From NCBI GenBank assembly GCA_016179745.1, contig JACPCP010000009.1, forward strand, positions 9,084 to 73,083: 64,000 nucleotides of DNA, given 5' to 3'. The stretch's first letter is position 1. Each line of letters starts with the position of its first letter. A program made the position numbers and the translations under genes. Below, piece after piece: positions 44,092 through 64,000 of this stretch. The notes under the pieces were generated by a model that saw only the letters and a program-made list of their open reading frames with translations, ran no database searches and was not told where the DNA came from. This DNA comes from Candidatus Omnitrophota bacterium. Lineage in GTDB: Bacteria; Omnitrophota; Omnitrophia; Omnitrophales; JACQLI01.

Positions 44092-44100
44092 GCGAAACGG

Positions 44101-44502
44101 TTATTTGTTCTTGTACCATTCAGGCAAGCCCCATTTTTTATTTACCTTAACAAAATTCTTGCCGTCCCTCGCGTCTCTATTCAGAATCACATAGAGAGAC
44201 TTTTCTGTAAGTTGTAGCCCGCCCTTTACTAACGCGTGATAGATTTCTTTCGTGGCTCTTGGTGTTTTGACCATTGACAAATACTTCTTAGAAGCTTCAT
44301 TGATATTCAAGCCAAAGAACGAATCCTCTGTAATCTCTCCTGTTGCCTGTATCACGGTAGACGGCAATGTAATTCCACTAGCACTTACGGTAAGGACTTT
44401 CAGCTGTTCAAGCTGTGCAATCATTGAGTCAATAGCGTCTCGTTTTGATTTTAAATCTTCGATTGCGGCGTCATAAGGACTTCCGCTGTTTTCTCCGTTC
44501 AT
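44101..44502 (-). CDS. Hypothetical protein with a coiled-coil N-terminus and a HARE-HTH-like winged-helix C-terminus, IS passenger
   Basis: The GGAGG RBS precedes ATG at 44502, so the ORF is shorter than in the track. The C-terminal ...TPRATKEIYHALVKGGL...SLYVILNRDARDGKNFVKVNKKWGLPEWY resembles HARE-HTH. Confidence 0.45.
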   Translation of the reverse strand: MNGENSGSPYDAAIEDLKSKRDAIDSMIAQLEQLKVLTVSASGITLPSTVIQATGEITEDSFFGLNINEASKKYLSMVKTPRATKEIYHALVKGGLQLTEKSLYVILNRDARDGKNFVKVNKKWGLPEWYKNK

Positions 44503-44813
44503 GTTACCTCCTTGCTTGTCGTTACTAGATATGTTATACATTCCTTGGTCGATTACCCCTCTTTCGAGGGGCATTGGCTTATATTATCATGTACCACCTC
44601 CTGTGCCGACTGGCACGGTTCCGGCGGTTCTAAGGAAAGCGGGCAAGCTAGCTCCTTAGAACCGCGTTTTTCAATCCACCCCCAGAGTAACAGATAATCC
44701 AGAAAACACAACAACTTTTTTCAGAATTAAACGGAGAGTTGTGTTTATGATTTTATCGTTTAATTATTAAAATAGTTGTTGACAATGCCTGACCGCTCAA
44801 GCATAATATCAAC

Positions 44814-45638
44814 ATGAATAAGCTAACTACTGAAAAACGGGTTCAAGTGGTTGCCTCCCTTGTGGAGGGCAATTCCATCCGGGCCACCGTCCGTATGACG
44901 GGGGTTGCCAAGAATACGGTCGTGAATCTATTGGCCAATCTTGGGAAGGCTTGCTCGGAATATCAAGATAAGACCCTCCGAAACCTGAAATGTCGACGGA
45001 TTCAATGCGACGAGATTTGGTCATTCTGTTATGCCAAAGAGAAGAATGTCCCCAAAAAGAAAAAGGGGAGGTTTGGTTATGGTGACGTTTGGACTTGGAC
45101 GGCGATTGACGCTGACACCAAACTTGTTCCTTCATGGCTTGTGGCTGATCGCGGCTTGGATTCTGCGAAAGAATTTATAGAGGACTTGGCTTCAAGGCTT
45201 TCAAATCGCGTTCAGTTAACGACCGACGGACACCGGGCCTATTTTGAAGCCATTGAAAGTGCCTTCGGCTCAAATATCGATTATGCCCAACTGATAAAGC
45301 TTTACGGAGAAAGCGGAGAAGGGCAGAAGCGTTACAGCCCGGCTCAATGCGTAGGGACAATAAAAAACAAGGTCAATGGGAACCCTGAATCAGGAGGTGT
45401 TTCCACAAGCTTTGCCGAGAGGCAAAATCTGACAATGCGTATGAGCATGAGGCGTTTTACCCGCCTTACAAACGGCTTCTCTAAAAAAGTCGAGAATTTA
45501 GCCCATGCCGTAAGCCTTCACTTCATGTATTATAACTTCTGTCGCATTCATCAATCTTTGAGGGTTACTCCCGCAATGGAAGCGCAAGTAACTGACCATC
45601 TTTGGAGTTTGGAAGAAATTATTAACCTTTTAAATTAG
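44814..45638 (+). CDS. IS1-family DDE transposase (single-ORF type)
   Basis: N-terminal HTH. IQCDEIWSF, WTWTAIDADTK, LTTDGHRAY and SFAERQNLTMRMSMRRFTRLTNGFSKK...YNFCRIHQSL. Promoter TTGACA-17/18-CATAAT at about 44779-44808. Confidence 0.9.
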   Translation: MNKLTTEKRVQVVASLVEGNSIRATVRMTGVAKNTVVNLLANLGKACSEYQDKTLRNLKCRRIQCDEIWSFCYAKEKNVPKKKKGRFGYGDVWTWTAIDADTKLVPSWLVADRGLDSAKEFIEDLASRLSNRVQLTTDGHRAYFEAIESAFGSNIDYAQLIKLYGESGEGQKRYSPAQCVGTIKNKVNGNPESGGVSTSFAERQNLTMRMSMRRFTRLTNGFSKKVENLAHAVSLHFMYYNFCRIHQSLRVTPAMEAQVTDHLWSLEEIINLLN

Positions 45639-45786
45639 GAGGCAAAAATGTGGTATGAGACTATATTATTCGGTGTGTTTTGCTCAATTGCTTATGGTGT
45701 TTTCATCATTGAGCGGGAAATAAAACAAATAAGGGTAATGCTCCAAAAAAAGTTAAGTTCAAACTGACCCACTACCTATAAATAGC

Positions 45787-45815
45787 TTGCCGTTCATTTG
45801 CCCCTTCGTTACAAT
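45787..45815 (+). promoter_or_regulatory. Sigma70-like promoter
   Basis: TTGCCG, a 17-nt spacer and TACAAT, just right of the IS and 12 nt before ATG 45827. Confidence 0.45.
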
Positions 45816-45826
45816 CGGGCTCCACC

Positions 45827-46543
45827 ATGGCGACCTTGAACATCCCCGAGAGCCTTGAAACCTTAAAAAAGGCCCAGGACCTTGACCGTGAGATTTACAC
45901 CGCCCGTCAGGAACTCGCCTTCTTCCCGGAAAAGATCCATCAGCTCACCCTCGATTTGGAAGCCGAGAAATCCAGGATGCTGGATCTGGAAAAGCAGCTC
46001 AAGGACATTCAGGTCCGGCAGCGGGCGAAGGAAGGCGAGCTCGCCGAAAAGGAGGGGCTCATTCGAAAATACGACGCCCAGCTCGCCCAGGTCAAAACAA
46101 ACAAGGAATACGCCTCCCTCCAAAAAGAAATCGATTCCCTGAAGGCCGATTGTTCGATGGTGGAGGATTCCATTCTGGCCATTCTGGAGGAGGGCGACCA
46201 GCTCCAGCGCGCTGTCCGGGAAGAACGGAACCGGTTGGCCGAAGTGGAAAAAGAGTTTGAGGCCAGGAAAAGGGAGTTTGACGCCCGGGGCGAGGTTCTA
46301 AAGGCCCACCTTGACGAACTGACCGGGAAACGTTCCGGCGTCATTTCGCAGGTCCCTGAGGAGGCCCGCCGGCTTTACGAAAAGATCCTCGACAAGAAAG
46401 AAGGCTTGGCCCTCGTGCCCCTGGTGGGCGAGGCCTGCGGCGCCTGCCGGATCGACATCCGCCCCCAGCTCCTGAATGAACTCAAGCTGAAAGAGGCCCT
46501 CGTCGTCTGCGAGCATTGTTCCCGCATTCTCTATACGGATTAA
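45827..46543 (+). CDS. Coiled-coil zinc-ribbon protein (COG1579/DUF164-like)
   Basis: Long heptad region followed by a C4 zinc ribbon, CGACRIDI...CEHCSRIL. Confidence 0.8.
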   Translation: MATLNIPESLETLKKAQDLDREIYTARQELAFFPEKIHQLTLDLEAEKSRMLDLEKQLKDIQVRQRAKEGELAEKEGLIRKYDAQLAQVKTNKEYASLQKEIDSLKADCSMVEDSILAILEEGDQLQRAVREERNRLAEVEKEFEARKREFDARGEVLKAHLDELTGKRSGVISQVPEEARRLYEKILDKKEGLALVPLVGEACGACRIDIRPQLLNELKLKEALVVCEHCSRILYTD

Positions 46544-51523: not shown

Positions 51524-52885
51524 ATGAGCACGCTTCCAGGAGAACAGGAATCTCGGATTCTCGCCTCAGAGGAGGAGCTCTACGGCTACTTCCAGAAGTT
51601 TTCGAAGCCGGCCGCCCGTCAACGAGTGGGGATCGAATGCGAATTTTTCGGCGTCGAACGGGCGACCGGGAAGGCCCTCCTTTATTTAGGGCCCCGGGGA
51701 ATCGAGGCGGTCCTCTCTCGGCTGGCCGCCACTTTTCATTACGAGCCGATCCTTGAGGAGGGCCACGTCATTGCGCTCAGGAAGGGTGAGAACTGGATTA
51801 CCCTCGAACCGGGAGGCCAGGTGGAGCTCAGTGCCCCGCCGGTTTCAACCATCTTCGAAGTGGAAAAACAGATTCAAAGCTTTGCCGCCGAACTTCGTGA
51901 AGTGGAAAACTATTTTCCGGGGATTGCCTGGCTCTCGGTGGGGCTTCACCCCTTCAGCTCCCTCGAAGACACACCGTGGGTGCCGAAGCGCCGATACGAG
52001 ATTATGAAGGCGTATTTGGGCGGGCGGGGGAGACTGGCCCACGAAATGATGAAGCTCACTGCCACCAATCAAGCCAATTTCGATTACCCGGACGAGGCGA
52101 CGGCGCTGGCCCAATTCCGGGTGATTCACGGGATCACCTCGTTTGTCTCGGCGGCGTTCGGTCATTCCGCCTTTTCTGCCGGGAAACCGAATGGTTATTT
52201 GGGGCGCCGCCTGGCCATTTGGAATGAAACCGATCCTGACCGGTGCGGCCTTTTGGCGGAATTCATCGAGGAGGGAAAAACATTCCGGGATTACATCGAA
52301 TACGTTCTTCGGATGCCTTTGATGTTCATTGTTCGGGAGGGGAAATGGGTTCCTATGGAAGGGGTCTCCTTTCGGGAATTTGTGAGAAAGGGACGGGGAG
52401 AATTCCGTGCGACGCGGAGCGACTTTGAACTCCACTTGAGCACCGTTTTCCCCGAGGCCCGCTTCAAGCAATACATTGAAGTGCGGGGGGTGGATGCCCA
52501 ACGGCTCCCGCTCATTCCCGCCGTGGCCGCCTTCTGGAAAGGGATTCTTTACGATCCTGAAGTCCGGGAGAAGATCTGGAGTTTAGTCCGGGATTTTCGG
52601 CCGAAGGAGTGTCTGGCTTTACACCGTGCCGTTCCGAAGGAAGGACTGAAAGCGAGAATCGGTTCGGTTTCGGTGTGTGAAATTACCCAGGAACTTTTCC
52701 ACCTCTCCTGCAGGGGGTTGGGGAGACAGGCCCGGGAAGGGGAAGAGAGCGAATGTCTTTATCTCGATCGAATCGAAGAGGAAATTATCCGGCCCTGCCG
52801 TTCCCCCGCCGAAACTCTGCTTGAGAAGTGGGAGGGCGATTTCAACCAGGATCCTCAAAGGCTGATTCGCCATCTAGAGATTTAA
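51524..52885 (+). CDS. gshA: Glutamate--cysteine ligase (GCS2/plant-cyanobacterial type)
   Basis: VGIECEFFGV..., TLEPGGQVELSAPP and EVRGVDAQ motifs. Divergent from gshB. Confidence 0.8.
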   Translation: MSTLPGEQESRILASEEELYGYFQKFSKPAARQRVGIECEFFGVERATGKALLYLGPRGIEAVLSRLAATFHYEPILEEGHVIALRKGENWITLEPGGQVELSAPPVSTIFEVEKQIQSFAAELREVENYFPGIAWLSVGLHPFSSLEDTPWVPKRRYEIMKAYLGGRGRLAHEMMKLTATNQANFDYPDEATALAQFRVIHGITSFVSAAFGHSAFSAGKPNGYLGRRLAIWNETDPDRCGLLAEFIEEGKTFRDYIEYVLRMPLMFIVREGKWVPMEGVSFREFVRKGRGEFRATRSDFELHLSTVFPEARFKQYIEVRGVDAQRLPLIPAVAAFWKGILYDPEVREKIWSLVRDFRPKECLALHRAVPKEGLKARIGSVSVCEITQELFHLSCRGLGRQAREGEESECLYLDRIEEEIIRPCRSPAETLLEKWEGDFNQDPQRLIRHLEI

Positions 52886-52955: not shown

Positions 52956-53033
<78 letters not shown>

Positions 53034-53433: not shown

Positions 53434-53762
53434 GCTATCAGAGTGCCGGTCTTGCGGCAGGGCGCTGGCGGCAATTGACTTTTCTGGAGCAGATGGCCCA
53501 TATCGGAAGCGAAGTGGAACGGGCGCTCAACTGGCGGGCGAAGAAAAACGAGGTTTACTCACAAGGAGCTTTTGAGCGGGCGCTGGAGTTGATGGATTTG
53601 ACCCTGGCGGCGCACCGGGATTTTCCCCGCTTGAAAGAGGTGGCCCGCACGAGGGAGGCGTGGGTCGACTTTTTTTCCGGGACCAACGAGTATGGTTCTA
53701 CAGAGGTGTCCTGGAAGAAATACTTTTTAGCTTTCACCTTTGCCGCCCGCCGGGATCGTTAA
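53430..53762 (+). CDS. Hypothetical helical protein coupled to the DUF5674 gene
   Basis: ATGA overlap with the upstream gene. Predicted all-helical. No assignable motif. Confidence 0.5.
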   Translation: MSYQSAGLAAGRWRQLTFLEQMAHIGSEVERALNWRAKKNEVYSQGAFERALELMDLTLAAHRDFPRLKEVARTREAWVDFFSGTNEYGSTEVSWKKYFLAFTFAARRDR

Positions 53763-53784
53763 GGATTGGATTCAAAGCATACCG

Positions 53785-54486
53785 ATGACGACAACCCATG
53801 ACGCTTTAGGGAAGATCTGGTATCTGAAAAAGGTCAATCTCTTCCAAGGGCTTTCCAAAGAGGAGATGGCCCAGCTGGCCCAATTGACGCAGATGAAAAG
53901 TTTTAAACGGGGCGAGGCGATTTACCTTTCCGGCCAGCCGGGCCGTCAGGTCTACTTTTTGAAACAAGGAGTGGTCAAAATCTCGAAACTGAGCGGCGAG
54001 GGGCATGAGCTGACGCTGGCGCTCCTCAATCCCGGTGAAATTTTTGGGGAGCTGGAGGCGGTGGAGGAAAGCGCCCGCAACGCCCAAGCCGTAGCCCACA
54101 GTGATGTCTTGATCTGCGTCTTAAACCGGCAGGACCTTCTCAGGATGATGGAGTCAAAGCCGGACGTGGGAATCCGGTTGACCAAATTGATTGGTTTCAG
54201 GCGGCGGGTGATTGAGAACCGTCTCGGCAATCTCATCTTCCGGAGCATTCCCCAGAGACTCGCCGCTTTGCTCCTGGAATTAAGGGAGCCCTTCGGTAAA
54301 AAGACCGGCGGTGGGACCCGGCTCGACGTCCCGCTTACGCACGAAGACCTTGCGAATCTGATCGGAACGGCCCGGGCGACTTTGACCGAGGCCCTCAACG
54401 ACTTTAAAAAGGAAGGCCTCGTCGAAACGGAAGGGAAGCGGATCACAATCAAAAAGCCGGAGGCCCTCGAACTCATTGTGCGCTGA
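53785..54486 (+). CDS. Crp/Fnr-family transcriptional regulator
   Basis: cNMP-binding fold (GEIFGELEA), and a C-terminal HTH THEDLANLIGTARATLTEALNDFKKEG. Confidence 0.85.
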   Translation: MTTTHDALGKIWYLKKVNLFQGLSKEEMAQLAQLTQMKSFKRGEAIYLSGQPGRQVYFLKQGVVKISKLSGEGHELTLALLNPGEIFGELEAVEESARNAQAVAHSDVLICVLNRQDLLRMMESKPDVGIRLTKLIGFRRRVIENRLGNLIFRSIPQRLAALLLELREPFGKKTGGGTRLDVPLTHEDLANLIGTARATLTEALNDFKKEGLVETEGKRITIKKPEALELIVR

Positions 54487-56848
54487 TCGCTCCTCCGTGG
54501 TTTCACGGCTAGGCCTCCTTGGCCTTTTCTTTGTCTCGGCAGCCGTCATTCAACTCGAACTCCTTTTAATTCGTGCCACCTCGGTCATTTTGTGGAATCA
54601 CCACACCCCCTTGATTCTCACTCTGGCCCTTTTCGGGTTCGGTGCGAGCGGGGTTTTATGGGCGTCATCCCGCGCGGAGTTTCGGGACGATGCATCAAAA
54701 AGATCTCTTTCTTTTATTCTCGCCCTTCTTTTCTCTGCTGCCGTCATCTTCGTTTTTTTTATTTTCACAAGGATGCCGCTACTTGTAATGGGAGAAAAGC
54801 TTCCGGGGCTCAGGACGCTCTATTGGGTTTTGACCTTGATTGCCTTGATTTTCCCTTTCTTTTTCGGGGGGACCTTGATCGGGCTTTGGATCATTTTTGC
54901 AGGTGAAACTTCGGGAAAGGTTTATGGAATAAACCTGATCGGATCGGGCATCGGAAGTTTGAGTTATCTTTTTACCATTTCATCCCTCGGCGCCTCAGGT
55001 TCGGTTTTCTTTGTGATCTTTCTCCTGCTTGCGGGTGCCGTCTGTTTTTCCATGAGAAAAGAGGCCTTGTGGCAGGCAACGCTCAGCCTTGTTCTGCTTC
55101 TTGCGAGTATGGGAGCAATCTTTTTTGGAGAGTCGCTTATGCCGGTAGAAGCGCCGGTTGGAAAGCGGGTTTCCAAAGCTCCTCGTGAAGCGATTCTTTA
55201 CACCGGCTGGAATACCCTCTCCCGCGTAGACGTGATGCCGCCCGGCTTTGAAGGCACAACCAATCTCACCGTCTTGATCGATGGGGGGGCCGCCACGACT
55301 TACATTCCGCGGATTGAAGGAGGTCTTGATCGGGAAAATCCGGATCGCGTGCGGTCAGGGAACCCCTTAATCCATCGAATCAAAGAGGGGGAAGGGGAGG
55401 GGCCCTCGATCCTTGTCGTCGGGTCCGGAGGCGGTATCGATGTCCGTGATTTTCTCGTGAATGGGGCGAGCCGGGTTACCGCCGTCGAGATTAACCCCCT
55501 CATGAATGAACTCGTCCGGAAACGATTTCGGCGGGAGGCGGGGAATCTCTATCAGGATCCACGGGTGCGGGTCATCACAGGTGACGTGCGGAGTTTTCTT
55601 TCAAAAACCGATGAGAGATTCGATATCATCCATCTTGGCCTCCCCATCACCAACGCCGCCCTCGCCTCGGGCGCTGTCAATCTCTCGGAAAACACCCTTC
55701 TTACGGAGGAAGCCCTGGGAGTCTATTTCTCACATCTGGTCCCCGGGGGAATCTTTTATCTTTATCACAACGAACTTTCAGCGCTCAGGACGGTTGTCAC
55801 TGCAGCGCGTTTTTTTCGAGAAAAGGAATTCACTCCCTTATCTGAATCGGTGGTCGCTCTCCTCGCTGCGAGCAATCCCGAAGAGCGCCCGATCACGGGG
55901 GTTAGAGCCGAACTTTTGATTAAAAAGGGGGCCTTCAGTTTTGAAGAGCTGAAGAAGGTGCGTGATGTTGCGAAAAGATACGGGTTTACGACTCGTTACC
56001 TCCCGGGCGAAAAGGGGGAGAGCTATTTTCATCGTTTTTTTGACGCGACCCTTGGAGAAAAGGAGTTGAAACCTTTCCCCGATCTGTTGCGGCCCCCTAC
56101 CGATGAACGCCCTTACTTTTTTCATCTGGTGACGTGGCGGGAATTCTTCCGGCGGATCTTCGATAAAAATATTGCGGCGGGAGAAGGGAGCCTTCTCTTG
56201 TCTCTGGCGCTCGTTCTAGTTTTAATTTTCCCGTTCATTCTTTTCAGCCTGCCAAGGCTGGCAAAAAGCCCACGCCGTGATCCCGGCTGGCTTTATCTCT
56301 TTGCAGGGACCAGTTCAGGATTCGGCTTCATGCTTCTCGAGTTTGTCTTGTTAAGCTGGCTTCGGATCCTTTGGGGGAATCCGGAGACCGCCGCCATGAT
56401 AATTCTTTCGGTCTTCCTGGTCAGCGCCGGCCTGGGAAGCCTTTCGGTGCGGTTTCTGGCGGGAAAGATTCCGGGATTTATTCTGATGCTCGGCGGAACC
56501 CTCTTCCTTTTTTGCTTTGGAGCGGCCCGAGGGATGCCGGAGCTGATCCGCACTCTTTGGGCTGCGTCAGAAAGCGCAAAAATTTTTGGAACGCTTGTCG
56601 TTCTCACTCCCTTTGGCTTTGTCATCGGAATGCCTTTTGCCTGGCTTCTGGAGAGGCTCTCAAGGATTTCTCATCTCTGGTCGGGATGGGCGTGGGTCTA
56701 TAATATTTTCAGCTCTTCTCTTGGATCGATCCTCGGTTTTATGGTGGCCATGGATTACGGCTACTCCATGGTTTTTGGAATAGCGGCATTCTCTTATGCG
56801 GTCTTCTTGATCCTGATTTGTTTTTCCAGAGGATGGGGGCCGCGTTAG
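54476..56848 (+). CDS. Polytopic membrane protein with an embedded spermidine-synthase-like methyltransferase-fold domain
   Basis: About 7 N-terminal TM helices. Central ILVVGSGGGIDVRDFL...VTAVEINP...DPRVRVITGDVRSFL...FDIIHLG. Additional TM helices at the C-terminus. Confidence 0.75.
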   Translation: MCADRSSVVSRLGLLGLFFVSAAVIQLELLLIRATSVILWNHHTPLILTLALFGFGASGVLWASSRAEFRDDASKRSLSFILALLFSAAVIFVFFIFTRMPLLVMGEKLPGLRTLYWVLTLIALIFPFFFGGTLIGLWIIFAGETSGKVYGINLIGSGIGSLSYLFTISSLGASGSVFFVIFLLLAGAVCFSMRKEALWQATLSLVLLLASMGAIFFGESLMPVEAPVGKRVSKAPREAILYTGWNTLSRVDVMPPGFEGTTNLTVLIDGGAATTYIPRIEGGLDRENPDRVRSGNPLIHRIKEGEGEGPSILVVGSGGGIDVRDFLVNGASRVTAVEINPLMNELVRKRFRREAGNLYQDPRVRVITGDVRSFLSKTDERFDIIHLGLPITNAALASGAVNLSENTLLTEEALGVYFSHLVPGGIFYLYHNELSALRTVVTAARFFREKEFTPLSESVVALLAASNPEERPITGVRAELLIKKGAFSFEELKKVRDVAKRYGFTTRYLPGEKGESYFHRFFDATLGEKELKPFPDLLRPPTDERPYFFHLVTWREFFRRIFDKNIAAGEGSLLLSLALVLVLIFPFILFSLPRLAKSPRRDPGWLYLFAGTSSGFGFMLLEFVLLSWLRILWGNPETAAMIILSVFLVSAGLGSLSVRFLAGKIPGFILMLGGTLFLFCFGAARGMPELIRTLWAASESAKIFGTLVVLTPFGFVIGMPFAWLLERLSRISHLWSGWAWVYNIFSSSLGSILGFMVAMDYGYSMVFGIAAFSYAVFLILICFSRGWGPR

Positions 56849-56906
56849 CTCCAAAAGGGTAAACCATGGATAAAATAAAGGGAAAACCTGATATAAAATT
56901 TTCCTC

Positions 56907-56938
56907 TTGACTCTAGAGTATACTCCAGGATGTATGGT
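56907..56938 (+). promoter_or_regulatory. MerR-type promoter/operator P1
   Basis: TTGACT, a 20-nt spacer containing the dyad CTAGAGTATACTCCAG, then TATGGT. The over-long spacer is typical of MerR-activated promoters. Confidence 0.6.
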
Positions 56939-57005
56939 TAAAATGCGGAAGTAATCGGCGGTTTTTCATGCCGCCACTTCTCGCAAAACGGAGGCGGGAA
57001 AAGCG

Positions 57006-57572
57006 ATGTTGGTAAAGACATTATGGACCGTTGGAATCGTTGCGCTTGTCTTCCTTAACGCAATTTCTTTCGGTCAGGCCGAGATTGAAGAAGTTAAACT
57101 CGAGGTCGATGGTCTTGCCTGCCCTTTTTGTGCTTATGGGCTTGAGAAGAAACTGAAGAAAGTGCCGGGCACATCCGCTTACGAGATCGATATGAAAAGA
57201 GGAGAGGCGTTTGTGCGCTCCGAGAAGAAAACAGCGCTTAATTTCGCGAGCTTTGAAAATGCCGTCAGAGAAGCCGGATTTACCCTAAGGGGGATCACCG
57301 TCAAGGCCGTAGGGAAAATTGTGGATTTAGAAGAGGGTTTTGCTTTTGAAGTCCGAGAGTCAGGACAGAGGTTTCTTTTGTTTGAGGGTACGCAGAGTCA
57401 TGAGAAGTACCACGCGGGAGAAAAAATCAAGCCGCTTTCAAAAAAGCTTGAGAACGAGCTTTCAGCCTTTAAGGATAAGGGAATCCCCCTTCGAATTGAA
57501 GGGACGATTCATCCCCACGAAGGTCTCGCTCCAGGATTGCTTATCAAACGTTACGAGGAAGTAAAAGCGTGA
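57006..57572 (+). CDS. Exported heavy-metal-associated (HMA) domain protein with a C-terminal extension
   Basis: Signal peptide. HMA fold with VDGLACPFCAYGLEKKL (CxxC). Extra domain of about 90 aa. Confidence 0.75.
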   Translation: MLVKTLWTVGIVALVFLNAISFGQAEIEEVKLEVDGLACPFCAYGLEKKLKKVPGTSAYEIDMKRGEAFVRSEKKTALNFASFENAVREAGFTLRGITVKAVGKIVDLEEGFAFEVRESGQRFLLFEGTQSHEKYHAGEKIKPLSKKLENELSAFKDKGIPLRIEGTIHPHEGLAPGLLIKRYEEVKA

Positions 57573-57949
57573 GCAAAGAAAAGATCGTTCATTTCCTTGC
57601 TTTATTTGGTTCGACAAGTACGCTTCTCTGCTGTGCGCTCCCTGCTTTGCTTGCGACGGTTGCAGGAGGAGTTGTCCTAAGCGCCTTAATCTCTGCTTTC
57701 CCTTGGCTGATTCCTCTTTCCCGTAATAAGGATTGGATCTTTATCATTGCGGGAGTACTCATTCTAATAAGCGGAATCCTCACCTTCGGGCCGAAGGGGA
57801 AAATAGCCTGCGCGCTTACGGGCGGAAAAGGATGTGAGGTTGCTGGTGGCTTTACTCGCATCCTCTTTTTTGTTTCCTTGGCGATTTATCTTATGGGCGG
57901 ATTCGTTGCCTATGCCTTGGTCCCTCTGTTGCGATTCTTCGAAGCATGA
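57569..57949 (+). CDS. MerT/MerC-like metal-transport membrane protein
   Basis: TM1 carries the vicinal cysteines LLCCALP. A second Cys pair is present (CALTGGKGC). Four TM helices. GTGA coupling to the upstream gene. Confidence 0.6.
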   Translation: MSKEKIVHFLALFGSTSTLLCCALPALLATVAGGVVLSALISAFPWLIPLSRNKDWIFIIAGVLILISGILTFGPKGKIACALTGGKGCEVAGGFTRILFFVSLAIYLMGGFVAYALVPLLRFFEA

Positions 57950-58872
57950 GTAGGGCGAAAACCGGAAAGTCAAAAAGATGCCTTTTGATTTTAGGGGGCT
58001 TCATGCTCCTTATTATCCCTTCCGACTCCTTCGCCATTCCCATCAACAATGATTCAGCTCTCACAGCCCATAAAGGGGAGGTCATTTTCAGGGAGCAGAT
58101 CCGTTACACAAGAAAGGCAGATGATCCTTCAGATTTGGACCGAACCTTGGACGTCATTTCCATTCCCAATGTGTTGGTTTATGGCGTGACCGAGAAGTTT
58201 AATGTCATCAGCACATACCCCGTTATTTACAAAGATTTTGATACGAATACCTCAACCGGACGGGCAAGTCGGGATGCTGAGGGTTTTGGGGATTTAACCC
58301 TTCTTGCCAAATACCTTTTTTGGAAGAGGGATCGCCCCCTCGAAACTCTGCGTGCCGATCTTGTAGGCGGCCTTGAATTTCCAACGGGGAATACGAATGA
58401 AGAGGACGGCCTTGGGAAACTCCCTCGCGACCTCCAAGTGGGGAAGGGCTCCTGGAACCCGATCGTTGGGACCGTCTTCACCTGGCAAACTCTGAGACAG
58501 CAAATCGATCTTGCCTTGACTTATCAGTTCAATATCGAAGGCCACGGTTTTGAATTTGGCGATCTTTTCAGGCACGACCTTTCCTACCAGTTCCGAGTCT
58601 GGCCTTGGGAATTGCCAGAAAAAAGAGGTGTCCCCGCCTATCTGAATCTTGTAGGGGAGGCTAATGGCGTGTGGGAGCAAAAGGCCCAATCCAATCGTTC
58701 GCGGATCGATGCTTCCGGCGGCTACACACTTTTTCTTTCCCCCGGCATTCAACTTGTGACGAAACGGTTGATTGCCGAAATTTCCGTCCAGCTTCCTGCA
58801 ATCCAGTTTCTCAACGGGGAGCAGCCGGAGACCGAGTTCATTCTGATAGGGGGCGTTCGATTACAATTCTAA
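57946..58872 (+). CDS. Outer-membrane beta-barrel channel (MetA-pathway/transporter-like OMP)
   Basis: Signal peptide. Alternating amphipathic strands. C-terminal ...GGVRLQF. ATGA coupling to the upstream gene. Confidence 0.6.
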   Translation: MSRAKTGKSKRCLLILGGFMLLIIPSDSFAIPINNDSALTAHKGEVIFREQIRYTRKADDPSDLDRTLDVISIPNVLVYGVTEKFNVISTYPVIYKDFDTNTSTGRASRDAEGFGDLTLLAKYLFWKRDRPLETLRADLVGGLEFPTGNTNEEDGLGKLPRDLQVGKGSWNPIVGTVFTWQTLRQQIDLALTYQFNIEGHGFEFGDLFRHDLSYQFRVWPWELPEKRGVPAYLNLVGEANGVWEQKAQSNRSRIDASGGYTLFLSPGIQLVTKRLIAEISVQLPAIQFLNGEQPETEFILIGGVRLQF

Positions 58873-58886
58873 ACTAATTTTTCCCC

Positions 58887-58918
58887 TTGACTCTGGAGTA
58901 TACTCTAGAGTGTAGACT
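58887..58918 (+). promoter_or_regulatory. MerR-type promoter/operator P2
   Basis: TTGACT, a 20-nt spacer containing the dyad CTGGAGTATACTCTAG, then TAGACT. Nearly identical to P1. Confidence 0.6.
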
Positions 58919-58934
58919 TCCGTGGAGGTTGAAA

Positions 58935-59402
58935 ATGGAAGGGGAACAACAGGGCTTTCAAATCGGCGTGGTTTCGAGGGAGACGACATTCTCCATCGAC
59001 ACGATCCGCTATTACGAGAAGCTTGGGCTCGTGGAAAAGCCCCGCCGGAGCGAAGGGGGATTCAGGCTTTACCCCCAAGAGGCCGTCGAAAAGCTCCGTT
59101 TCATCAAGAGAGCCCAGGCGCTGGGCCTGACCTTGAAGGAGATCAAGGGGATCATGCAGTGCAGCAAGGAGGGCCTCAAGCCCTGCTGTGACCTCGTGCG
59201 AAAGCTTTTCACAAACAAGATTAAGGAGTTCACATCGAAAATCAGGGAATTACAAACGACGAAAAGAGGTCTGGAGGCGCTTCTTTCAGAATGGGTCAGT
59301 CCCAAAGAAGCGAGAAAACGATCCTTTGCGGTCTGCCCCCAGATTGAAAGAGAACCAAAAAGGAACAGGAGGGAAAGACAATGGAACCGATCAGGAAAGT
59401 AA
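58935..59402 (+). CDS. MerR-family metal-responsive transcriptional regulator
   Basis: GGAGG RBS. HTH FQIGVVSRETTFSIDTIRYYEKLGL...GFRLY. Cysteines MQC, KPCC and AVCP flank the dimerisation helix. Confidence 0.85.
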   Translation: MEGEQQGFQIGVVSRETTFSIDTIRYYEKLGLVEKPRRSEGGFRLYPQEAVEKLRFIKRAQALGLTLKEIKGIMQCSKEGLKPCCDLVRKLFTNKIKEFTSKIRELQTTKRGLEALLSEWVSPKEARKRSFAVCPQIEREPKRNRRERQWNRSGK

Positions 59403-59554
59403 CGCTTTGCCCTGCGTGCGGGGCCTGCCCTGAGATTGCGCTCTTTGAGGAAGAAGTTCACATTGGCGAAAAAGGCAATCTCGTCCGGCTCAAGAAGCAG
59501 GAGTGGAATGACCTGGTTCAGAAGATCCGTTCGGGTGAATTGAAGGAGGTCTGA
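59381..59554 (+). CDS. Small cysteine-rich protein (57 aa, below the track cutoff)
   Basis: GGAGGG RBS 8 nt upstream. Translation MEPIRKVTLCPACGACPEIALFEEEVHIGEKGNLVRLKKQEWNDLVQKIRSGELKEV. It overlaps the regulator's end and stops 3 nt before merTP. Confidence 0.4.
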   Translation: MEPIRKVTLCPACGACPEIALFEEEVHIGEKGNLVRLKKQEWNDLVQKIRSGELKEV

Positions 59555-59557
59555 ACC

Positions 59558-60133
59558 GTGAAAGCTAAAGGCCTCGGGATTTTGTCGGCCCTGACGGCGT
59601 CGGTCTGCTGCCTGGGGCCTTTGCTTTTAATCGTCCTTGGTTTGGGAGGCCTGGGTTTGGGGGCGGTCCTTGGAAGGTCTCACTGGTATTTCATCCTTGG
59701 AGCCGCCTTTCTTCTCGCCTTTGCCTGGCGCCGCTACTTCAGGGAAAAGAACTCGTGTGAATCAGCGCACTGTGAAATGGAAGGAAAGAAAATGACACGC
59801 AATGTGCTTTTCTTCGCCACAGCGGTTGTCTTGACCTTTGCCGGCCTCAACCTTTACACCTTTGCGAAAGGGAACGCCGGGGAAAATCTTGTCAAATCAG
59901 GGGCGCAAGTCTCAATCCCCGTCGAGGGGATGAGCTGCTTCACCTGTGAGCTGGCCGTCGAGTCGGCGGTCAAAAAGCTTCCCGGGATTCATCAAGCGAA
60001 GGCCAGCGCTAAAGACAAAATAGCCTGGGTTAACTACAATCCTCAAGAGACATCGCTTGACCAAATTGTGGAAGCCATCAATCAGACAGGCTATCAGGCG
60101 GCCGAGCCCACGCCTCAAGGGGAGCGCCAATGA
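59558..60133 (+). CDS. merTP: MerT-MerP fusion-type mercuric/heavy-metal transport protein
   Basis: N-terminal TM with SVCCLGPLLL. Cys-rich loop CESAHC. C-terminal HMA domain VEGMSCFTCE. Confidence 0.8.
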   Translation: MKAKGLGILSALTASVCCLGPLLLIVLGLGGLGLGAVLGRSHWYFILGAAFLLAFAWRRYFREKNSCESAHCEMEGKKMTRNVLFFATAVVLTFAGLNLYTFAKGNAGENLVKSGAQVSIPVEGMSCFTCELAVESAVKKLPGIHQAKASAKDKIAWVNYNPQETSLDQIVEAINQTGYQAAEPTPQGERQ

Positions 60134-60618
60134 CCGAGTGCTGTGAGCCGAAACGAGGGGCCGGGAAGATTTGCCCTGAGTGCGGCAAGCCGGGAAAGCC
60201 TGTCCAGTGGATGACCCTTGAGAATCTTCTCAACGAGCCTTCCAAGATCGCCGGCGGACCCTACCGGTTTTGCGCCACGGCGGACTGCCCGGTTGTGTAT
60301 TTCAGGGGACAGGTCCTGGCCGAAGAAGGCGAAGGACCTGACCCCTGTCCTTTTCATAAAGACGACCTCAAAGTTCGGGTCGGAATCAAGGAGAAAGAGG
60401 ACCCGGTCCCGCTTTGCTACTGCTTTGGCTGGGACCGCCTCAAGATTTGGGGCGAAATCAAGCGCACGGGCAAATCAACCGCTGTCGAATCGATTACGAA
60501 GAAGGTCAAGGCAGGGGAGTGCTTTTGCGAGCGCTCCAATCCCCAAGGGACCTGCTGCCTCGGCAATATCTCAAAGGCAGTCAAAGAGGCGGTCGAGCGC
60601 TTGGGTAAAGGGAGTTAA
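60130..60618 (+). CDS. Cys-rich putative metallochaperone (CopZ-N-terminal-like zinc-ribbon/[2Fe-2S]-type family)
   Basis: CPECGKPGKPV, YRFCATADCPVVYF, LCYCFGW and GECFCERSNPQGTCCLGN motifs. Confidence 0.6.
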   Translation: MTECCEPKRGAGKICPECGKPGKPVQWMTLENLLNEPSKIAGGPYRFCATADCPVVYFRGQVLAEEGEGPDPCPFHKDDLKVRVGIKEKEDPVPLCYCFGWDRLKIWGEIKRTGKSTAVESITKKVKAGECFCERSNPQGTCCLGNISKAVKEAVERLGKGS

Positions 60619-60715
60619 TCAACCACCCTCATTTTCTTTCCGCTTTTGTCACCCTGCTGACAGTTTTCCAGGCCGGTTCCGGTTAAGCTTCCTTTAGAAA
60701 AAGGAGGAACCGGGA

Positions 60716-61771
60716 TTGAAGACACTGGAACTTTTTACCCACGCAGGATGTCCCTCGAGGAAGAACGGGATTCGATTGATCCGTGAGGCGCTTAAGGGTC
60801 TCGAGGGGGAGGTGTTGTTTCGAGAGGTTGATTTGGGCCGAAGCCCCGAAAGGGCAGAGGCGCTCGGGGTGCGGATGTCTCCTACCATAGTCTTGGACGG
60901 CAAGATCATTTCCGTGGGTCTGCCGACGGCAAAAGGGCTGAAAAGAATTCTTGGAGAAAAGGGGACAGGCAAAAATGGATTGGGCAATTTTGCCTGTCCC
61001 CTTTTTTTGCTTGCTCTGCTTCAGATGAATCCCGTGACGGCAGACGCCGCCGATTTTACCTTTGACGCCTGGAGGCAGGTGTTGGAACAGCACGTGACCG
61101 ACGGAAAGGTCGATTACGCCGCCATCAAAAAATCGCCGGCCGGGCTCGATCAATTCGTGGACAAGGTCCAAGCGGTCTCAGCCAGAGATTATGAAGCGTG
61201 GGACCGGGATCAAAAGATGGCCTTCTGGATCAATGCCTACAACGCCTCAGCCGTAAAACTGGTCGTGGATCATTATCCTTTGAAAAGGCGGATCGGCTTA
61301 AAGGCCCTTGCCTTTCCCTCTGAAAGTATTCAGCAGATCCCCCATGTCTGGAGCCGCAAAGTGATCGAGGCAGCGGGCCGGCGGCTCAGTCTGGATGATA
61401 TCGAAAATAAAATCCTGCGCCGGGACTTCGGAGATCCGAGAATCCATTTTGCCCTGGTCTGCGCTTCCCTGGGATGCCCCGTCTTGCGGAGCGAAGCTTA
61501 CGAGGCGGGGCGGCTTGGTTCCCAACTGGAAGACCAGGCGGAGAAGTTCCTGAGCGATCCAAACAAGTTCCGTTATGAAAAAAAGAGTGATAAGATTCAC
61601 CTCTCACCGATCTTTAAATGGTTTAAGGAAGATTTCAAACAGAGGGGCGGCGTGACGGCATTCATTAAAAATTACCTGCCAAAAGAAATTGCCGGCGCCC
61701 TTTCTTTCCGCACCACTGTCGAATGGCTCGACTACGACTGGCGCCTCAATCAAAAGGAGACCCACCCATGA
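60716..61771 (+). CDS. Thioredoxin-fold domain and DUF547 domain in one reading frame
   Basis: The N-terminal ~80 aa are glutaredoxin/Thioredoxin_3-like with a single Cys (HAGCPSR). A signal-peptide-like stretch follows (FACPLFLLALLQMNPVTADA). Then DUF547 (FDAWRQVL..GKVDY, WINAYNASAVKLVV). Confidence 0.6.
   Translation: MKTLELFTHAGCPSRKNGIRLIREALKGLEGEVLFREVDLGRSPERAEALGVRMSPTIVLDGKIISVGLPTAKGLKRILGEKGTGKNGLGNFACPLFLLALLQMNPVTADAADFTFDAWRQVLEQHVTDGKVDYAAIKKSPAGLDQFVDKVQAVSARDYEAWDRDQKMAFWINAYNASAVKLVVDHYPLKRRIGLKALAFPSESIQQIPHVWSRKVIEAAGRRLSLDDIENKILRRDFGDPRIHFALVCASLGCPVLRSEAYEAGRLGSQLEDQAEKFLSDPNKFRYEKKSDKIHLSPIFKWFKEDFKQRGGVTAFIKNYLPKEIAGALSFRTTVEWLDYDWRLNQKETHP
60961..61008 (+). terminator. 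Canonical intrinsic-terminator structure located inside the 60716-61771 reading frame
   Basis: GGGGACAGGCAAAA (60961-60974), a 13-nt loop, TTTTGCCTGTCCCC (60988-61001), then T7 (61002-61008). Confidence 0.5.
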
Positions 61772-62010
61772 CCTGCAAAGAAGCGGCGGAACTGATCTAC
61801 GCCTTTGCTGAAACCAAACCCTCCACCCGGGCCCAGAAAGAATTCCAGGACCATGTCCGGAAATGCCGTCCCTGCGTTCAGTTTATCCGGAAACTGGGAA
61901 AGCAGACCCAGGCCGGCTTTGACGTCGGCTGCGGGGAAATCCCGGACACCCTGCTTGAGGAATTTTCACAGCTCATGCGAAGCAATTTGGGAGGAATGGA
62001 GGCGACATGA
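61768..62010 (+). CDS. zf-HC2-type (anti-sigma-like) small zinc-finger protein
   Basis: ATGA coupling to the upstream gene. MTCKEAAELIYAF...HVRKCRPC matches the putative zinc-finger of anti-sigma factors. Confidence 0.5.
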   Translation: MTCKEAAELIYAFAETKPSTRAQKEFQDHVRKCRPCVQFIRKLGKQTQAGFDVGCGEIPDTLLEEFSQLMRSNLGGMEAT

Positions 62011-62336
62011 AGGAGGGCGGGGCGATGAAAAAGATAAAACTTTCCACCTGTTTTTGCCGTATTCCCTTTGAAAAACTTTCCGAGCTGGTGCATTTGCGTT
62101 TTATAGTCGGGATGGAGACCGAAGAGATCATGAAACAGCTTCCGTCACGGGAAGACCGGGAACGCCTGGCGGCCGTGGCGCTGCTGGATGTTGACCCGGC
62201 CAATCTTGAAGCGGCGATTGAGACCGAGGATCCTATGCTGGCCAAACATCTTTTTGGGTGCCGGGAAAAGGCGTTGAAGATCTTGAAAGAGCACGGGATT
62301 GAACTTAGGGGATCGAGGAGGGGAGCTGATGGATAA
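62007..62336 (+). CDS. Hypothetical protein, possible sigma-70 region-4-like HTH
   Basis: ATGA coupling to the upstream gene. IPFEKLSELVHLRFIVGMETEEIMKQL resembles a region-4/LuxR-type HTH. Confidence 0.35.
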   Translation: MKEGGAMKKIKLSTCFCRIPFEKLSELVHLRFIVGMETEEIMKQLPSREDRERLAAVALLDVDPANLEAAIETEDPMLAKHLFGCREKALKILKEHGIELRGSRRGADG

Positions 62337-63009
62337 GAAGATAAAATTTGCCGTTCTCGTCGTTGGGCTTGCCGCAGTTTTTGCGATTTTCCGCTGGTCG
62401 CCGGCGGCGGAGTGGCTCACGAAGGAGAACATTCTGGGGTTCCTCGGTATCATTCGAGGCGAGTGGTGGGGCCCGGCTGTTTTTATTTTAATCTACGCCG
62501 TCGGCTGCGTCGTGGCGCTTCCGGGGTCGATCCTGACTTTGGCCGGCGGGGCGGTCTTCGGCACGGCGTGGGGGACCGTCTACAACGTGGTTGCCTCCAA
62601 CCTCGGCGCCACGCTGGCATTTCTCGCAGCCCGCACCCTCGGACGGGATTTCGTCAAGGGGTTCCTCAAAGGAGGGAGGCTGGCCGAGTTTGACGAGGCG
62701 ATCGGCCGCTCCGGTTTCAAAACCATTTTCCGGCTTCGATTGATTCCCGTTGTTCCCTTTAACGGCCTCAATTTCGGGGCCGGTTTTTCAGCCGTTCGGT
62801 ATCGGGATTATCTGACGGGTTCCTTTCTCGGAATGCTCCCGGCGACTTTCATCTACACCTATTTTGCTGACGCCCTTCTTGAGGGTGTCACCGGAGCCGG
62901 TCAAAAGGCCTTTTTGAATCTGGCCCTGGCCGGCGCCCTTCTGGTTCTTGTCTCTTTTCTTCCTTCAATTTACAAAACAATCAAGGAGCGGACGAATGGA
63001 AAAGTTTGA
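62329..63009 (+). CDS. TVP38/TMEM64 (DedA/SNARE-associated) family membrane protein
   Basis: GAGGAGGGG RBS. PGSILTLAGGAVFG...LRLIPVVPFNGLNFGAG motif. Confidence 0.85.
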   Translation: MDKKIKFAVLVVGLAAVFAIFRWSPAAEWLTKENILGFLGIIRGEWWGPAVFILIYAVGCVVALPGSILTLAGGAVFGTAWGTVYNVVASNLGATLAFLAARTLGRDFVKGFLKGGRLAEFDEAIGRSGFKTIFRLRLIPVVPFNGLNFGAGFSAVRYRDYLTGSFLGMLPATFIYTYFADALLEGVTGAGQKAFLNLALAGALLVLVSFLPSIYKTIKERTNGKV

Positions 63010-64000
63010 TCTGGTCATTGTCGGAGGCGGTGTGGCGGGGCTGGTGACAGCGAGCGGCTCGGCCCAGTTTGGGGCGAAGGTGGCTTTGGTGGAAAAGGAG
63101 TCCCTCGGCGGCGACTGCCTTCACTGGGGCTGCGTGCCGACGAAGACGCTGGTCCATTCAGCGAAAGTTGCCTCACTCGTCCGGCGTTCGGAAGAATTTG
63201 GAATCGAAACCTCCGGCGCCCAGGTCAACTTCGAGAAGGTGACAAGCCGAATGCGTTCCGTTCAAGAGAGGATCGGAAGGAACGACGACCCGGAGCGGTT
63301 CCGGAAAATGGGCGTGGAAGTGATCTTCGGGGAAGGGCACTTCCTCGACCCCCGCACCTTTGAAGTCAACGGACGGCAGCTTCGGGCCAAAAAGTTTCTG
63401 ATCGCCACCGGCTCCCGGCCTGTCGTCATCCCAATCCCGGGGCTCAAAGAGTCGGGAGTGTTGACCAACATCACGGCCCTTAAATTGGATTATCTCCCCC
63501 GGTCAATGGCCATTCTCGGCGCTGGGCCGATCGGCCTCGAATTCGCCCAGGTCTTCGCCCGGCTCGGGACCAAAGTCACGGTCATTGAAAAGATGGGACA
63601 GATTCTTCCCCGGGAAGACAAAGAGGCGGCGGACGTCCTCGAAGTGATTCTGAAAGAAGAGGGAATCGAGATTGTCACCTGCATGGAAGTCAAGGAAGTC
63701 AAAAGGGAGGCCGGCGGAAAAAGACTCCTCGCCGCCCAGTGCGAAATCCACGGGAACCTCAATCTGGAAGTGGATGAGGTGATGATTGCAATCGGCCGGG
63801 CGCCGAACGTGGAAGGGCTCAATTTGAATATCGCCGGGGTTGAATTTGACAAAAAAGGAATCAAGGTGGATTCGACTTTGCGGACCACTCAGAAGCATAT
63901 CTTTGCCGCCGGCGACGTCACCGGGCTATACGCTTTTACCCACGTGGCGGAATATCAAGCAGGCATCGTTGTCTCAAACGCCCTTTTTCCTTTGATGAAT
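62996..64000 (+). CDS. Class I pyridine nucleotide-disulfide oxidoreductase, MerA/dihydrolipoamide-dehydrogenase-like (3'-truncated by the window end; not in the ORF track)
   Basis: AAGGAG RBS. My own translation gives MEKFDLVIVGGGVAGLV...GGDCLHWGCVPTK (redox CxxxxC)...ILGAGPIGLEFAQ...IFAAGDVTG. The frame is open to nt 64000. Confidence 0.85.
   Translation, partial: MEKFDLVIVGGGVAGLVTASGSAQFGAKVALVEKESLGGDCLHWGCVPTKTLVHSAKVASLVRRSEEFGIETSGAQVNFEKVTSRMRSVQERIGRNDDPERFRKMGVEVIFGEGHFLDPRTFEVNGRQLRAKKFLIATGSRPVVIPIPGLKESGVLTNITALKLDYLPRSMAILGAGPIGLEFAQVFARLGTKVTVIEKMGQILPREDKEAADVLEVILKEEGIEIVTCMEVKEVKREAGGKRLLAAQCEIHGNLNLEVDEVMIAIGRAPNVEGLNLNIAGVEFDKKGIKVDSTLRTTQKHIFAAGDVTGLYAFTHVAEYQAGIVVSNALFPLMN

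Follow-up and report, generated by a model that had tools for sequence, protein, structure and literature searches.

Does the 3′ end of a 64,000-nucleotide stretch of a Candidatus Omnitrophota genome encode one island related to mercury-resistance operons, or do separate systems lie side by side there? The stretch (hereafter the window; contig JACPCP010000009.1, positions 9,084-73,083, assembly GCA_016179745.1) carries, from about 56.9 kb onward in window coordinates, genes for a MerR-family regulator, MerT-type membrane proteins, several Cys-rich proteins and an oxidoreductase resembling the mercuric reductase MerA, and an initial annotation had read these as a single "mer-like island" made of two operons. 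The locus is better described as two neighbouring units, a probable uptake cassette (unit A) followed by the start of an arsenosugar-type operon (unit B). The explanation that we favour, with a probability of roughly 0.6, is a composite one: unit A would be a MerR-controlled regulon for the uptake of a thiophilic metal, unit B would represent the 5′ end of an arsenosugar-type operon, and the former would probably serve the pathway encoded by the latter. Families were assigned by scoring Pfam and NCBIfam profiles against their curated cut-offs, and synteny was compared with contigs of relatives and of metagenomes (Logan), which are given L numbers.

The boundary between the two units

All of the open reading frames (ORFs) previously listed between 57.0 and 64.0 kb are present on the forward strand, as are all features of units A and B described below, and profile searches reproduced nearly all of their domain labels. 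The proposed second operon, described as one unit from merR to the oxidoreductase gene, is divided by a Crp/Fnr-type palindrome, TGTCACCCTGCTGACA (TGTCA-N6-TGACA; 60647-60662), located between the gene for a Cys-rich protein of the CopZ N-terminal type (CopZ-Nt) and that for a thioredoxin-DUF547 fusion (Trx-DUF547). It lies 69 nt before the start of the latter gene (start to start, with a gap of 53 nt) and is unique in the window, where 0.03 occurrences are expected by chance. In 7 of 8 related loci such a palindrome is found 52-105 nt upstream (start to start) of the first gene of the operon, five times exactly and twice with one mismatch. A gene for a Crp/Fnr-family regulator is present at 53740-54486 (Pfam cNMP_binding and HTH_Crp_2), and its orthologues, 60-74% identical, stand upstream of unit B in L008, L029, L105, L107, L109 and L110. 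Because both the palindrome and the adjacent Crp-family gene are conserved, unit B appears to be a separate transcription unit, probably under Crp-type control, with the Crp-family protein as the likely ligand of the palindrome. The run of genes that begins with Trx-DUF547 and includes DedA and the oxidoreductase, formerly counted as part of the island, is thereby assigned to the 5′ end of an arsenosugar-type operon with an operator of its own.

The operators in this region were found by a search for repeats; a scan for promoters and terminators was uninformative, yielding one promoter-like site where 3.1 would be expected, and 12 terminator-like sites where the expectation is 12.9. As no terminator is predicted between the CopZ-Nt and Trx-DUF547 genes, read-through from one unit into the other is possible. 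This would suit one non-canonical mercury-resistance island, in which an outer-membrane protein, an HMA protein and MerT would import Hg(II) and a MerA-like flavoprotein associated with DedA would reduce it to Hg(0); the separate Crp-type operator in front of unit B speaks against such an arrangement. A scan of 53-64 kb with Rfam gave no matches, and no integrase, transposase or flanking direct repeats were found around 54.5-60.6 kb.

The FAD oxidoreductase and the operon of unit B

Reduction of Hg(II) would fall to the flavin adenine dinucleotide (FAD)-dependent pyridine-nucleotide-disulfide oxidoreductase (Pyr_redox_2) whose gene runs off the end of the window (62996-64000), leaving the N-terminal 335 of 477 residues. 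The full-length protein was recovered from Logan contig L001, which is 100% identical to the window over 59604-64000 and reaches 3.5 kb further. A C-terminal vicinal Cys pair, at positions 628/629 in the numbering of Bacillus RC607, is demanded of MerA (PMC8261052). The initial annotation had called the enzyme MerA-like and proposed a check for this pair and for an NmerA domain; both are absent from the full-length protein, whose C-terminus reads ...KRASDQYYRQKLFTGWFPKIARRLIRLG, Cys-free, and which ends ...YYRQKLFTGWFPKIARRLIRLG, again with cysteine absent. The pair is likewise missing from every member of the clade to which the enzyme belongs (see below), and the score against the MerA equivalog TIGR02053, 403.6 bits, stays below the cut-off of 454.45. 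The FAD domain does contain a redox-active CxxxxC motif (GGDCLHWGCVPTK), a feature common to all group-1 flavoprotein disulfide reductases that does not discriminate MerA.

The initial annotation had named as its own refutation the lack of the MerA cysteines together with a grouping with the dihydrolipoyl dehydrogenase Lpd, and this outcome is largely what is seen. A place in Lpd itself is not supported. The best family is NF004991 ("FAD-containing oxidoreductase", 520.8 bits), the score against TIGR01350 (Lpd) is barely above its cut-off (415.5 against 408.8 bits), and the catalytic His-Glu dyad of disulfide reductases (HPTxSE) is missing, because HVYPTLSQ stands where Lpd has HPHPTLSE, with Tyr in place of His and Gln in place of Glu. 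Homologues with at least 39% identity all have GGDCLxxGCVP(S/T)K, (V/I/P)YPT and a basic-aromatic tail without vicinal cysteines, and their hosts are Omnitrophota, Thermodesulfobacteriota, Cyanobacteria, Acidobacteriota and one alphaproteobacterium; matches with 36% identity or less are mostly ordinary Lpd-type proteins (HxHPT). Judged by its sequence, the oxidoreductase is a member of a separate, widespread clade that is neither MerA nor Lpd. Public records label members of this clade "mercuric reductase" or "dihydrolipoyl dehydrogenase" interchangeably, and the potential for mercury resistance would be overestimated if these flavoproteins were counted as merA.

Some observations weigh against this placement and are in keeping with a mercury island. 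The best solved relative of the enzyme is MerA (287.7 bits, versus 249 for Lpd), and HVYPTLSQ aligns to APYLTMAE of Lysinibacillus MerA 5x1y, Tyr on Tyr; from its distance to the C-terminus, the aligned residue would be Y605 of MerA. Moreover, reduction of both Hg(II) and U(VI) was reported for a cyanobacterial "MerA-like" enzyme (PMC4307280), which makes metal reduction by the window oxidoreductase possible. This enzyme, Slr1849 of Synechocystis, is annotated as a mercuric reductase, and so are the cyanobacterial members of the window clade; the likeness is one of annotation, and the reported activity is not transferable to the window oxidoreductase. The Synechocystis protein is not among the top 120 matches of a Crocosphaera query.

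The company that the oxidoreductase gene keeps points in another direction. On L001 it is followed, with overlapping starts and stops, by genes for a GH1 protein, a TIGR04282 protein (204.7 bits, cut-off 134), an ArsM-like methyltransferase and the start of a PiT/PHO4 transporter, of which the end of the contig holds the first 25 residues. Contig L100, from the same sample, shares an in-frame overlap of 30 nt with the end of L001 and of 32 nt with that of L098, and the linkage from the window to ArsS is bridged via L001 and its 30-nt overlap with L100. The latter carries genes for PiT (PHO4, 204 bits), ArsS (L100:1086-2045; TIGR04167, 438.2 bits, cut-off 300), a 200-aa methyltransferase, a TIGR04283 protein (223.3 bits, cut-off 182) and a transglutaminase-core protein. 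Both P0135 (ArsS) and P0001 (the oxidoreductase) also figure at NCBI as proteins of a Candidatus Omnitrophica metagenome-assembled genome (MAG), and the longest NCBI contig is the same for the two, at 81,970 nt. Assembled in this way, unit B, from 60.65 kb onward, would comprise Trx-DUF547, zf-HC2, a 109-aa protein, DedA, the oxidoreductase, GH1, TIGR04282, the ArsM-like protein, PiT, ArsS, the methyltransferase, TIGR04283 and the transglutaminase-core protein. Contigs L001 and L098, from two samples, break at the same point, in PiT codons 1-25 with the conserved YANGANDNFKG motif, which suggests strain variation or a repeated k-mer.

In related Omnitrophota loci, with oxidoreductases of 75-95% identity, the core order is in most cases crp, Trx, DUF547, (zf-HC2), the 109-aa protein, DedA and oxidoreductase in the 5′ half, and TIGR04282, ArsM-like, PiT, ArsS, TIGR04283 and a fatty-acid hydroxylase in the 3′ half. 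Exceptions are L107 and L109, where TIGR04282 comes after ArsS and the 109-aa homologue is absent; optional genes among relatives include HPr, GH1, a 470-aa protein, DsrE and the transglutaminase-core protein. In the Acidobacteriota loci L014 and L025 the oxidoreductase gene is found beside TIGR04282 and TIGR04283, in L025 also with ArsS and an ArsM-like gene. The conservation of the oxidoreductase with DedA and DUF547 in ArsM/ArsS operons of genomes lacking the cassette argues against a mercury island.

ArsM methylates As(III) and ArsS adds a 5′-deoxyadenosyl group, functions which are established for the families and not for the proteins considered here. According to the literature, ArsS uses the methylarsenite made by ArsM and adenosylates its arsenic, which is the first committed arsenosugar step. 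The arsenosugar label of unit B reflects such family membership, which weighs against the composite explanation, as does the fact that the ArsM-like protein falls below every ArsM cut-off (343/500, 213/263 and 140/400 bits). In the PDB it is most closely related to CmArsM (E 1e-36), and the cysteines of YGCG, NCV and C-x-GA align. As a working scheme, ArsM and ArsS would make an adenosyl arsenical whose sugar would be remodelled by GH1, TIGR04282 and TIGR04283. The oxidoreductase and the Trx domain would most likely give the pathway NAD(P)H-driven dithiol reducing power, and DedA would most likely handle a lipid-linked or amphipathic intermediate. Among COG0398 DedA proteins, fusion is reported to be most frequent with enzymes of the same class as this oxidoreductase, the pyridine-nucleotide-disulfide oxidoreductases (PMC10127716). 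As in such COG0398/TVP38 pairs, to which it is likened here, the window DedA gene adjoins and overlaps a PF07992/PF02852 oxidoreductase gene; unlike in the fusions, the two are separate genes, and they lie inside an organoarsenical operon.

The window operon resembles arsM-arsS of Synechocystis with TIGR04167, TIGR04282 and TIGR04283, in that these three families pass their cut-offs and the ArsM-like gene is co-oriented. It differs in its host, a MAG from the anaerobic lineage Omnitrophota, in being known from genes alone, and in the addition of Trx-DUF547, zf-HC2, DedA, the distinct FAD oxidoreductase, GH1, PiT and the transglutaminase-core protein, none of which was found described as a component of the arsenosugar pathway in the literature searched. 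No description of accessory genes of arsenosugar operons was found there either; as far as this search reached, both these genes and the recurring link between the two units are undescribed. We know of no established arsenosugar step after ArsS, and the conserved operon supplies candidate genes for such steps: GH1, the two glycosyltransferase-like proteins, DedA, the dithiol flavoprotein and Trx-DUF547.

The products of the first genes of unit B are as follows. The Trx-DUF547 fusion (60716-61771; Thioredoxin_3 and DUF547 profiles) corresponds to two genes in L008, L029, L109 and L110. Inside its ORF, exactly at the Trx/DUF547 junction where relatives split into two genes, lies a terminator-like hairpin (60954-61008) with a perfect 21-bp stem followed by a U7 run (-35.6 kcal/mol, z -5.5), which could be an attenuator, a terminator or a relic of gene fusion. 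The next gene encodes an anti-sigma-like zf-HC2 protein of 80 aa (61768-62010; 23.8 bits, cut-off 22.2), with homologues of 61-63% identity in L007 and L029. It is followed by the gene for the 109-aa helical protein (62007-62336), which matches no family and is conserved in the operon, with homologues of 43-76% identity in L007, L008, L029, L105, L108 and L110; its earlier label, a possible region-4 HTH protein, is unproven, and a single-sequence AlphaFold2 model (predicted local distance difference test, pLDDT, 59.8) was not good enough to search for similar folds. DedA itself, a membrane protein of 226 aa with a VTT domain (62329-63009; PF09335, 96.3 bits, cut-off 33.9), is encoded next to the oxidoreductase in no fewer than 11 related loci.

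Further variants of the operon were noted. L107 has a 40-aa zf-CDGSH gene (L107:9204-9326) between DUF547 and DedA, and a DsrE-like gene follows ArsS at L107:16924-17379 and L109:16873-17328; these genes fit a thiol or persulfide theme. In Thermodesulfobacteriota, single ORFs of about 620-690 aa (L010:2130-4187, L011:2010-3941 and L012:3054-4928, on the reverse strand) match both the ArsM-like and ArsS profiles at a distance of 6-8 kb from the oxidoreductase-DedA pair, and may be ArsM-ArsS fusions or share a common Cys-rich domain.

The proposed regulon of unit A

Unit A comprises seven genes (57006-60618) and two promoters, P1 and P2, whose existence the initial annotation had postulated and which both bear the same MerR-type operator. 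A 39-nt element detected by the repeat search occurs twice, at 56896-56934 and 58876-58914, with 85% identity. Within it begin P1 (56907-56938: TTGACT, dyad CTAGAGTATACTCCAG, TATGGT, with a 20-bp spacer) and P2 (58887-58918: TTGACT, dyad CTGGAGTATACTCTAG, TAGACT). Their common design, TTGACT, the dyad CTnGAGTATACTCnAG and a TAnnnT hexamer 20 bp after the -35 element, is present at these two sites only, with 0 expected by chance, and the same operator precedes merR homologues in L083, L084, L087, L093 and L105. A dyad between -35 and -10 elements with such a spacer is the architecture of promoters activated by MerR-family proteins, such as Tn501 merOP and zntA. Since P1 and P2 are near-identical, operon 1 and the operon of the regulator itself are probably under the control of one protein.

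This regulator (155 aa, 58935-59402; Pfam MerR_1 and MerR-DNA-bind) has the hallmarks of a MerR-family metal sensor: a helix-turn-helix domain, a dimerisation helix, and Cys residues at the start of that helix and in the C-terminal loop. A start at TTG 58887 was rejected in favour of ATG 58935, as that codon belongs to the -35 hexamer of the gene's own promoter. Cys84, Cys85 and Cys134 are invariant in five homologues; Cys85 aligns with C82 of MerR and C77 of CadR, Cys134 with C126 of MerR, and the position of C117 is without Cys. Among solved structures it is closest to MerR proteins (69.7 and 57.7 bits), which would agree with a mercury island, and then to CadR, the MerR-family regulator 5gpe and CueR. 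The profile of Hg(II)-responsive MerR is missed (TIGR02051, 90.6 bits, cut-off 150.85), the C82/C117/C126 triad is incomplete, and the protein is equidistant from ZntR, CueR and CadR. A single MerR-family activator with a CC + C thiolate site is thus predicted to act at two near-identical promoters with 20-bp spacers.

The structural genes would encode a thiol relay across the envelope. Operon 1 begins with an exported HMA-domain protein of 188 aa with a CPFC motif (57006-57572; Pfam HMA 23.6 bits, just under the cut-off of 24.8), with a visible signal peptide and an extra C-terminal domain of about 95 aa without family match; homologues of 40-43% identity are found beside the cassette in L084, L086 and L093. 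The second gene encodes a 126-aa inner-membrane protein (57569-57949) with CC in its first transmembrane helix (TM1) and a C-x7-C loop, and with a homologue of 63-64% identity in L093. Its earlier label, "MerT/C-like", is borne out by motif only and has no family match. A relationship to MerT, sought by aligning it to the MerT-HMA fusion described below with hhalign, was not significant (probability 5%, E 0.007), with both Cys pairs in register. The third product is an outer-membrane beta-barrel of the Phenol_MetA_deg family (57946-58872; PF13557, 36.9 bits, cut-off 22), a 72% identical homologue of which adjoins the cassette in L084.

In the second operon, merR is followed by the gene for a 57-aa protein with a CPACGACP (CxxCxxC) motif (59381-59554). 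It has no family match and is nevertheless a real gene, as the initial annotation had it, being 73-88% identical in eight contigs (L083-L088, L105 and L108); the remaining genes of the cassette proved real as well. For the 57-aa, 126-aa and 109-aa proteins and the C-terminal domain of the HMA protein, Pfam gave no matches even at E <= 1. Next comes a MerT-HMA fusion (MerTP-like) inner-membrane transporter (59558-60133), which has the domains of MerT and MerTP, with Pfam MerT at 55.2 bits, above the cut-off of 32.9 as a mercury island would have it, HMA at 48.9 bits, and invariant CC and C-x4-C; its score against the MerTP fusion equivalog NF033556 is 104.9 bits, below the cut-off of 180. The last gene encodes CopZ-Nt (60130-60618; NF047645 or CopZ_Nterm_CC, 119.7 bits, cut-off 100, full length), a putative cytosolic 2Fe-2S/Zn metallochaperone with ten invariant Cys. 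It is homologous to the N-terminal domain of Archaeoglobus fulgidus CopZ (PDB 2hu9) over residues 15-147 (E 8.4e-14); unlike A. fulgidus CopZ it stands alone without a C-terminal HMA domain, has additional vicinal Cys pairs at both its N- and its C-terminus, and its gene directly follows that for a MerT-type transporter. In the proposed relay, the metal would pass from the outer-membrane channel to the periplasmic HMA protein, on to the two inner-membrane proteins with MerT-type CC, and finally to cytosolic Cys-rich acceptors, the 2Fe-2S/Zn-type CopZ-Nt and the 57-aa CxxCxxC protein. Unit A (56.9-60.6 kb) would in this way import a soft metal or metalloid and hand it to cytosolic thiols, with neither a reductase nor an efflux pump.

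The earlier description is accordingly borne out in part: there is a module for a thiophilic metal, its MerR regulator is co-directional, and it includes an outer-membrane channel along with several Cys-rich proteins; merB and merD are not seen at the locus, and the identity of the metal is not readable from the sequence. Unit A shares with the canonical mer operon (Tn501/Tn21 merRTPA(D)) a MerR-family activator at a -35/dyad/-10 promoter with an over-long spacer, the MerT-type TM1 CC and cytosolic Cys pair, HMA (MerP-like) domains and the logic of import. It differs by lacking MerA, MerB and MerD, by a co-directional regulator that is autoregulated from the same promoter type, by a sensor with CC + C in place of C82/C117/C126, and by the addition of the outer-membrane channel, the CopZ N-terminal protein and the 57-aa protein.

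A scan of metagenomes with CopZ-Nt recovered the order merR, 57-aa gene, MerTP, CopZ-Nt, with identities of 59-84%. All four genes are present in L083, L084, L086 and L087, and L085 and L088 start inside the 57-aa gene. Some contigs add members of operon 1: the HMA protein and the outer-membrane protein in L084, the HMA protein in L086, and the HMA protein with the CC-membrane protein in L093. Since the seven genes recur together, they appear to form one recurring functional set, without reductase or pump. No DUF547, DedA or oxidoreductase gene was found on these cassette contigs (L083-L088, L093), and the want of a reductase beside cassettes elsewhere counts against a mercury island.

The AT-rich composition reported to begin at about 56.85 kb holds for operon 1 (57006-58872) only, with GC 0.47-0.50 and GC at third codon positions (GC3) 0.48-0.55, against a background over 54 ORFs of 0.562 +/- 0.033 and 0.650 +/- 0.058, respectively; the region from 58.9 to 64 kb is normal (GC 0.52-0.58). 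Upstream of operon 1, a gene at 54476-56848 encodes a polytopic membrane protein of 790 aa, in which weak Pfam and NCBIfam matches indicate a spermidine-synthase-like methyltransferase domain. It is missing from this position in all relatives compared, and tblastn found no match to it in L007, L008, L029, L105 and L107-L110. The 790-aa gene and the AT-rich operon 1 are extra to the window genome and seem to be the latest arrivals at the locus, which would have brought their own copy of the operator along.

A possible link between the units

Unit B occurs without unit A in five relatives (L007, L008, L029, L107 and L110). In L105 (89%) the four-gene cassette lies between crp and the Crp box with Trx-DUF547, and in L108 (87%), a contig starting inside the 57-aa gene, it lies directly upstream of the Crp box and Trx-DUF547; both are without the 790-aa gene and operon 1. 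In L109 (80%), genes for a MerT-only protein (66% identity) and CopZ-Nt (63%) immediately follow TIGR04283, at the opposite, 3′ end of the operon. The existence of two different arrangements suggests that proximity was selected for, so that a functional tie is favoured. Because MerT and CopZ-Nt neighbour the operon in two independent arrangements, it is probable that unit A works for the pathway, for instance as a supplier of As(III). Vicinal-Cys S3 sites are the As(III) binding mode of ArsD and of several ArsR proteins. Delivery of As(III) to the pathway would be the chemically most economical link between the units; that unit A serves the pathway is the least certain step of the composite explanation. 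The recurring MerT/CopZ-Nt pair and the compact MerR regulon with its identifiable operators make metalloid "import in order to transform" a testable notion in a phylum without a cultured model.

Several points weigh against a link of this kind. The absence of unit A from five related operons is an argument against it, the separate operators argue for separate regulation of the two units, and the association with arsenic could be coincidence, or could reflect shared ancestry within one lineage. In the foremost alternative, which the separate operators also favour, unit A would be a Cu/Ag (or Cd/Pb/Hg) homeostasis cassette without functional tie to unit B, inserted where crp and its target promoter would leave a permissive slot between them. 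Such a slot is apparent in L008, where unrelated genes (a TetR regulator and a hydrolase) lie between crp and Trx. Copper is further suggested by the homology of CopZ-Nt to A. fulgidus CopZ, by the HMA domain of MerT-HMA, which is closer to the metal-binding domains of Cu-ATPases than to MerP, and by a Peribacillus plasmid on which a MerR + CopZ-Nt pair precedes a multicopper oxidase. In L083, too, the cassette comes after the gene for a Cu-type P-type ATPase (TIGR01511, 640.9 bits) and after a gene fragment that is probably of the CusA type, as recognised by eye from its N-terminal sequence. Against this alternative, MerT and CopZ-Nt are found by the operon at two positions, 5′ (window, L105, L108) and 3′ (L109), and the regulator has no CueR-type C-x7-C loop and carries Cys, not Ser, at the position of MerR C82 and CadR C77. 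In published work on the family, Cys at this position marks sensors of divalent ions and not of Cu(I). On balance an unconnected homeostasis cassette is unlikely; as the metal of unit A, Cu, Hg, Cd and Pb are each possible.

It is tempting to go further than the composite explanation and to regard the MerR-type regulator, with its vicinal-Cys S3 site, as an As(III)/Sb(III) sensor, the relay of outer-membrane, HMA, MerT and CopZ-Nt proteins as a line dedicated to importing a metalloid and passing it to ArsM and ArsS, and Trx-DUF547, the flavoprotein clade with Tyr for His and DedA as supplying the redox and membrane steps that the synthesis of arsenosugars or arsenolipids still lacks; in this full form the proposal is doubtful, and we would hold it quite unlikely. 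Least probable is the mercury-resistance island, with an oxidoreductase that lacks the required Cys pair, as does its whole clade, and that scores below the MerA equivalog.

Side observations concern the surroundings of the two units. A tRNA-Pro (CGG) gene at 52956-53032 lies about 700 nt upstream of crp and about 1.4 kb upstream of the start of the extra genes (54476); because collinearity with L105 already sets in at the 3′ end of the tRNA gene (53004 onward), this gene is no obvious integration boundary for the cassette. In L105 the intergenic region between crp and merR is filled by a long near-perfect palindrome (L105:2385-2500; GAAGCGGTTTCATAAG...CTTATGAAACCGCTTC) that is absent from the window. 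CopZ-Nt of the window is only 49% identical to that of L105, the closest syntenic relative (window 60094-60404 versus L105:3847-4189), with flanking genes at 72-89%, and shares 65% identity with CopZ-Nt of L083, an unrelated contig, which suggests that part of the gene was replaced by recombination. About 4 kb upstream of the thiol-rich cassette, a GCS2 gene (glutamate-cysteine ligase family 2) is present at 51524-52885; any tie to thiol supply is speculative.

Elsewhere in the window, 3443-10884 holds two consecutive very large ORFs of 817 and 1661 aa, with no Pfam match at E <= 1e-5. A second patch of low GC (0.435-0.454) extends from 44000 to 46000; it includes an ORF without match on the reverse strand (44101-44574) and another, at 44814-45638, with a marginal match to a DDE transposase (PF13610, 27.3 bits).

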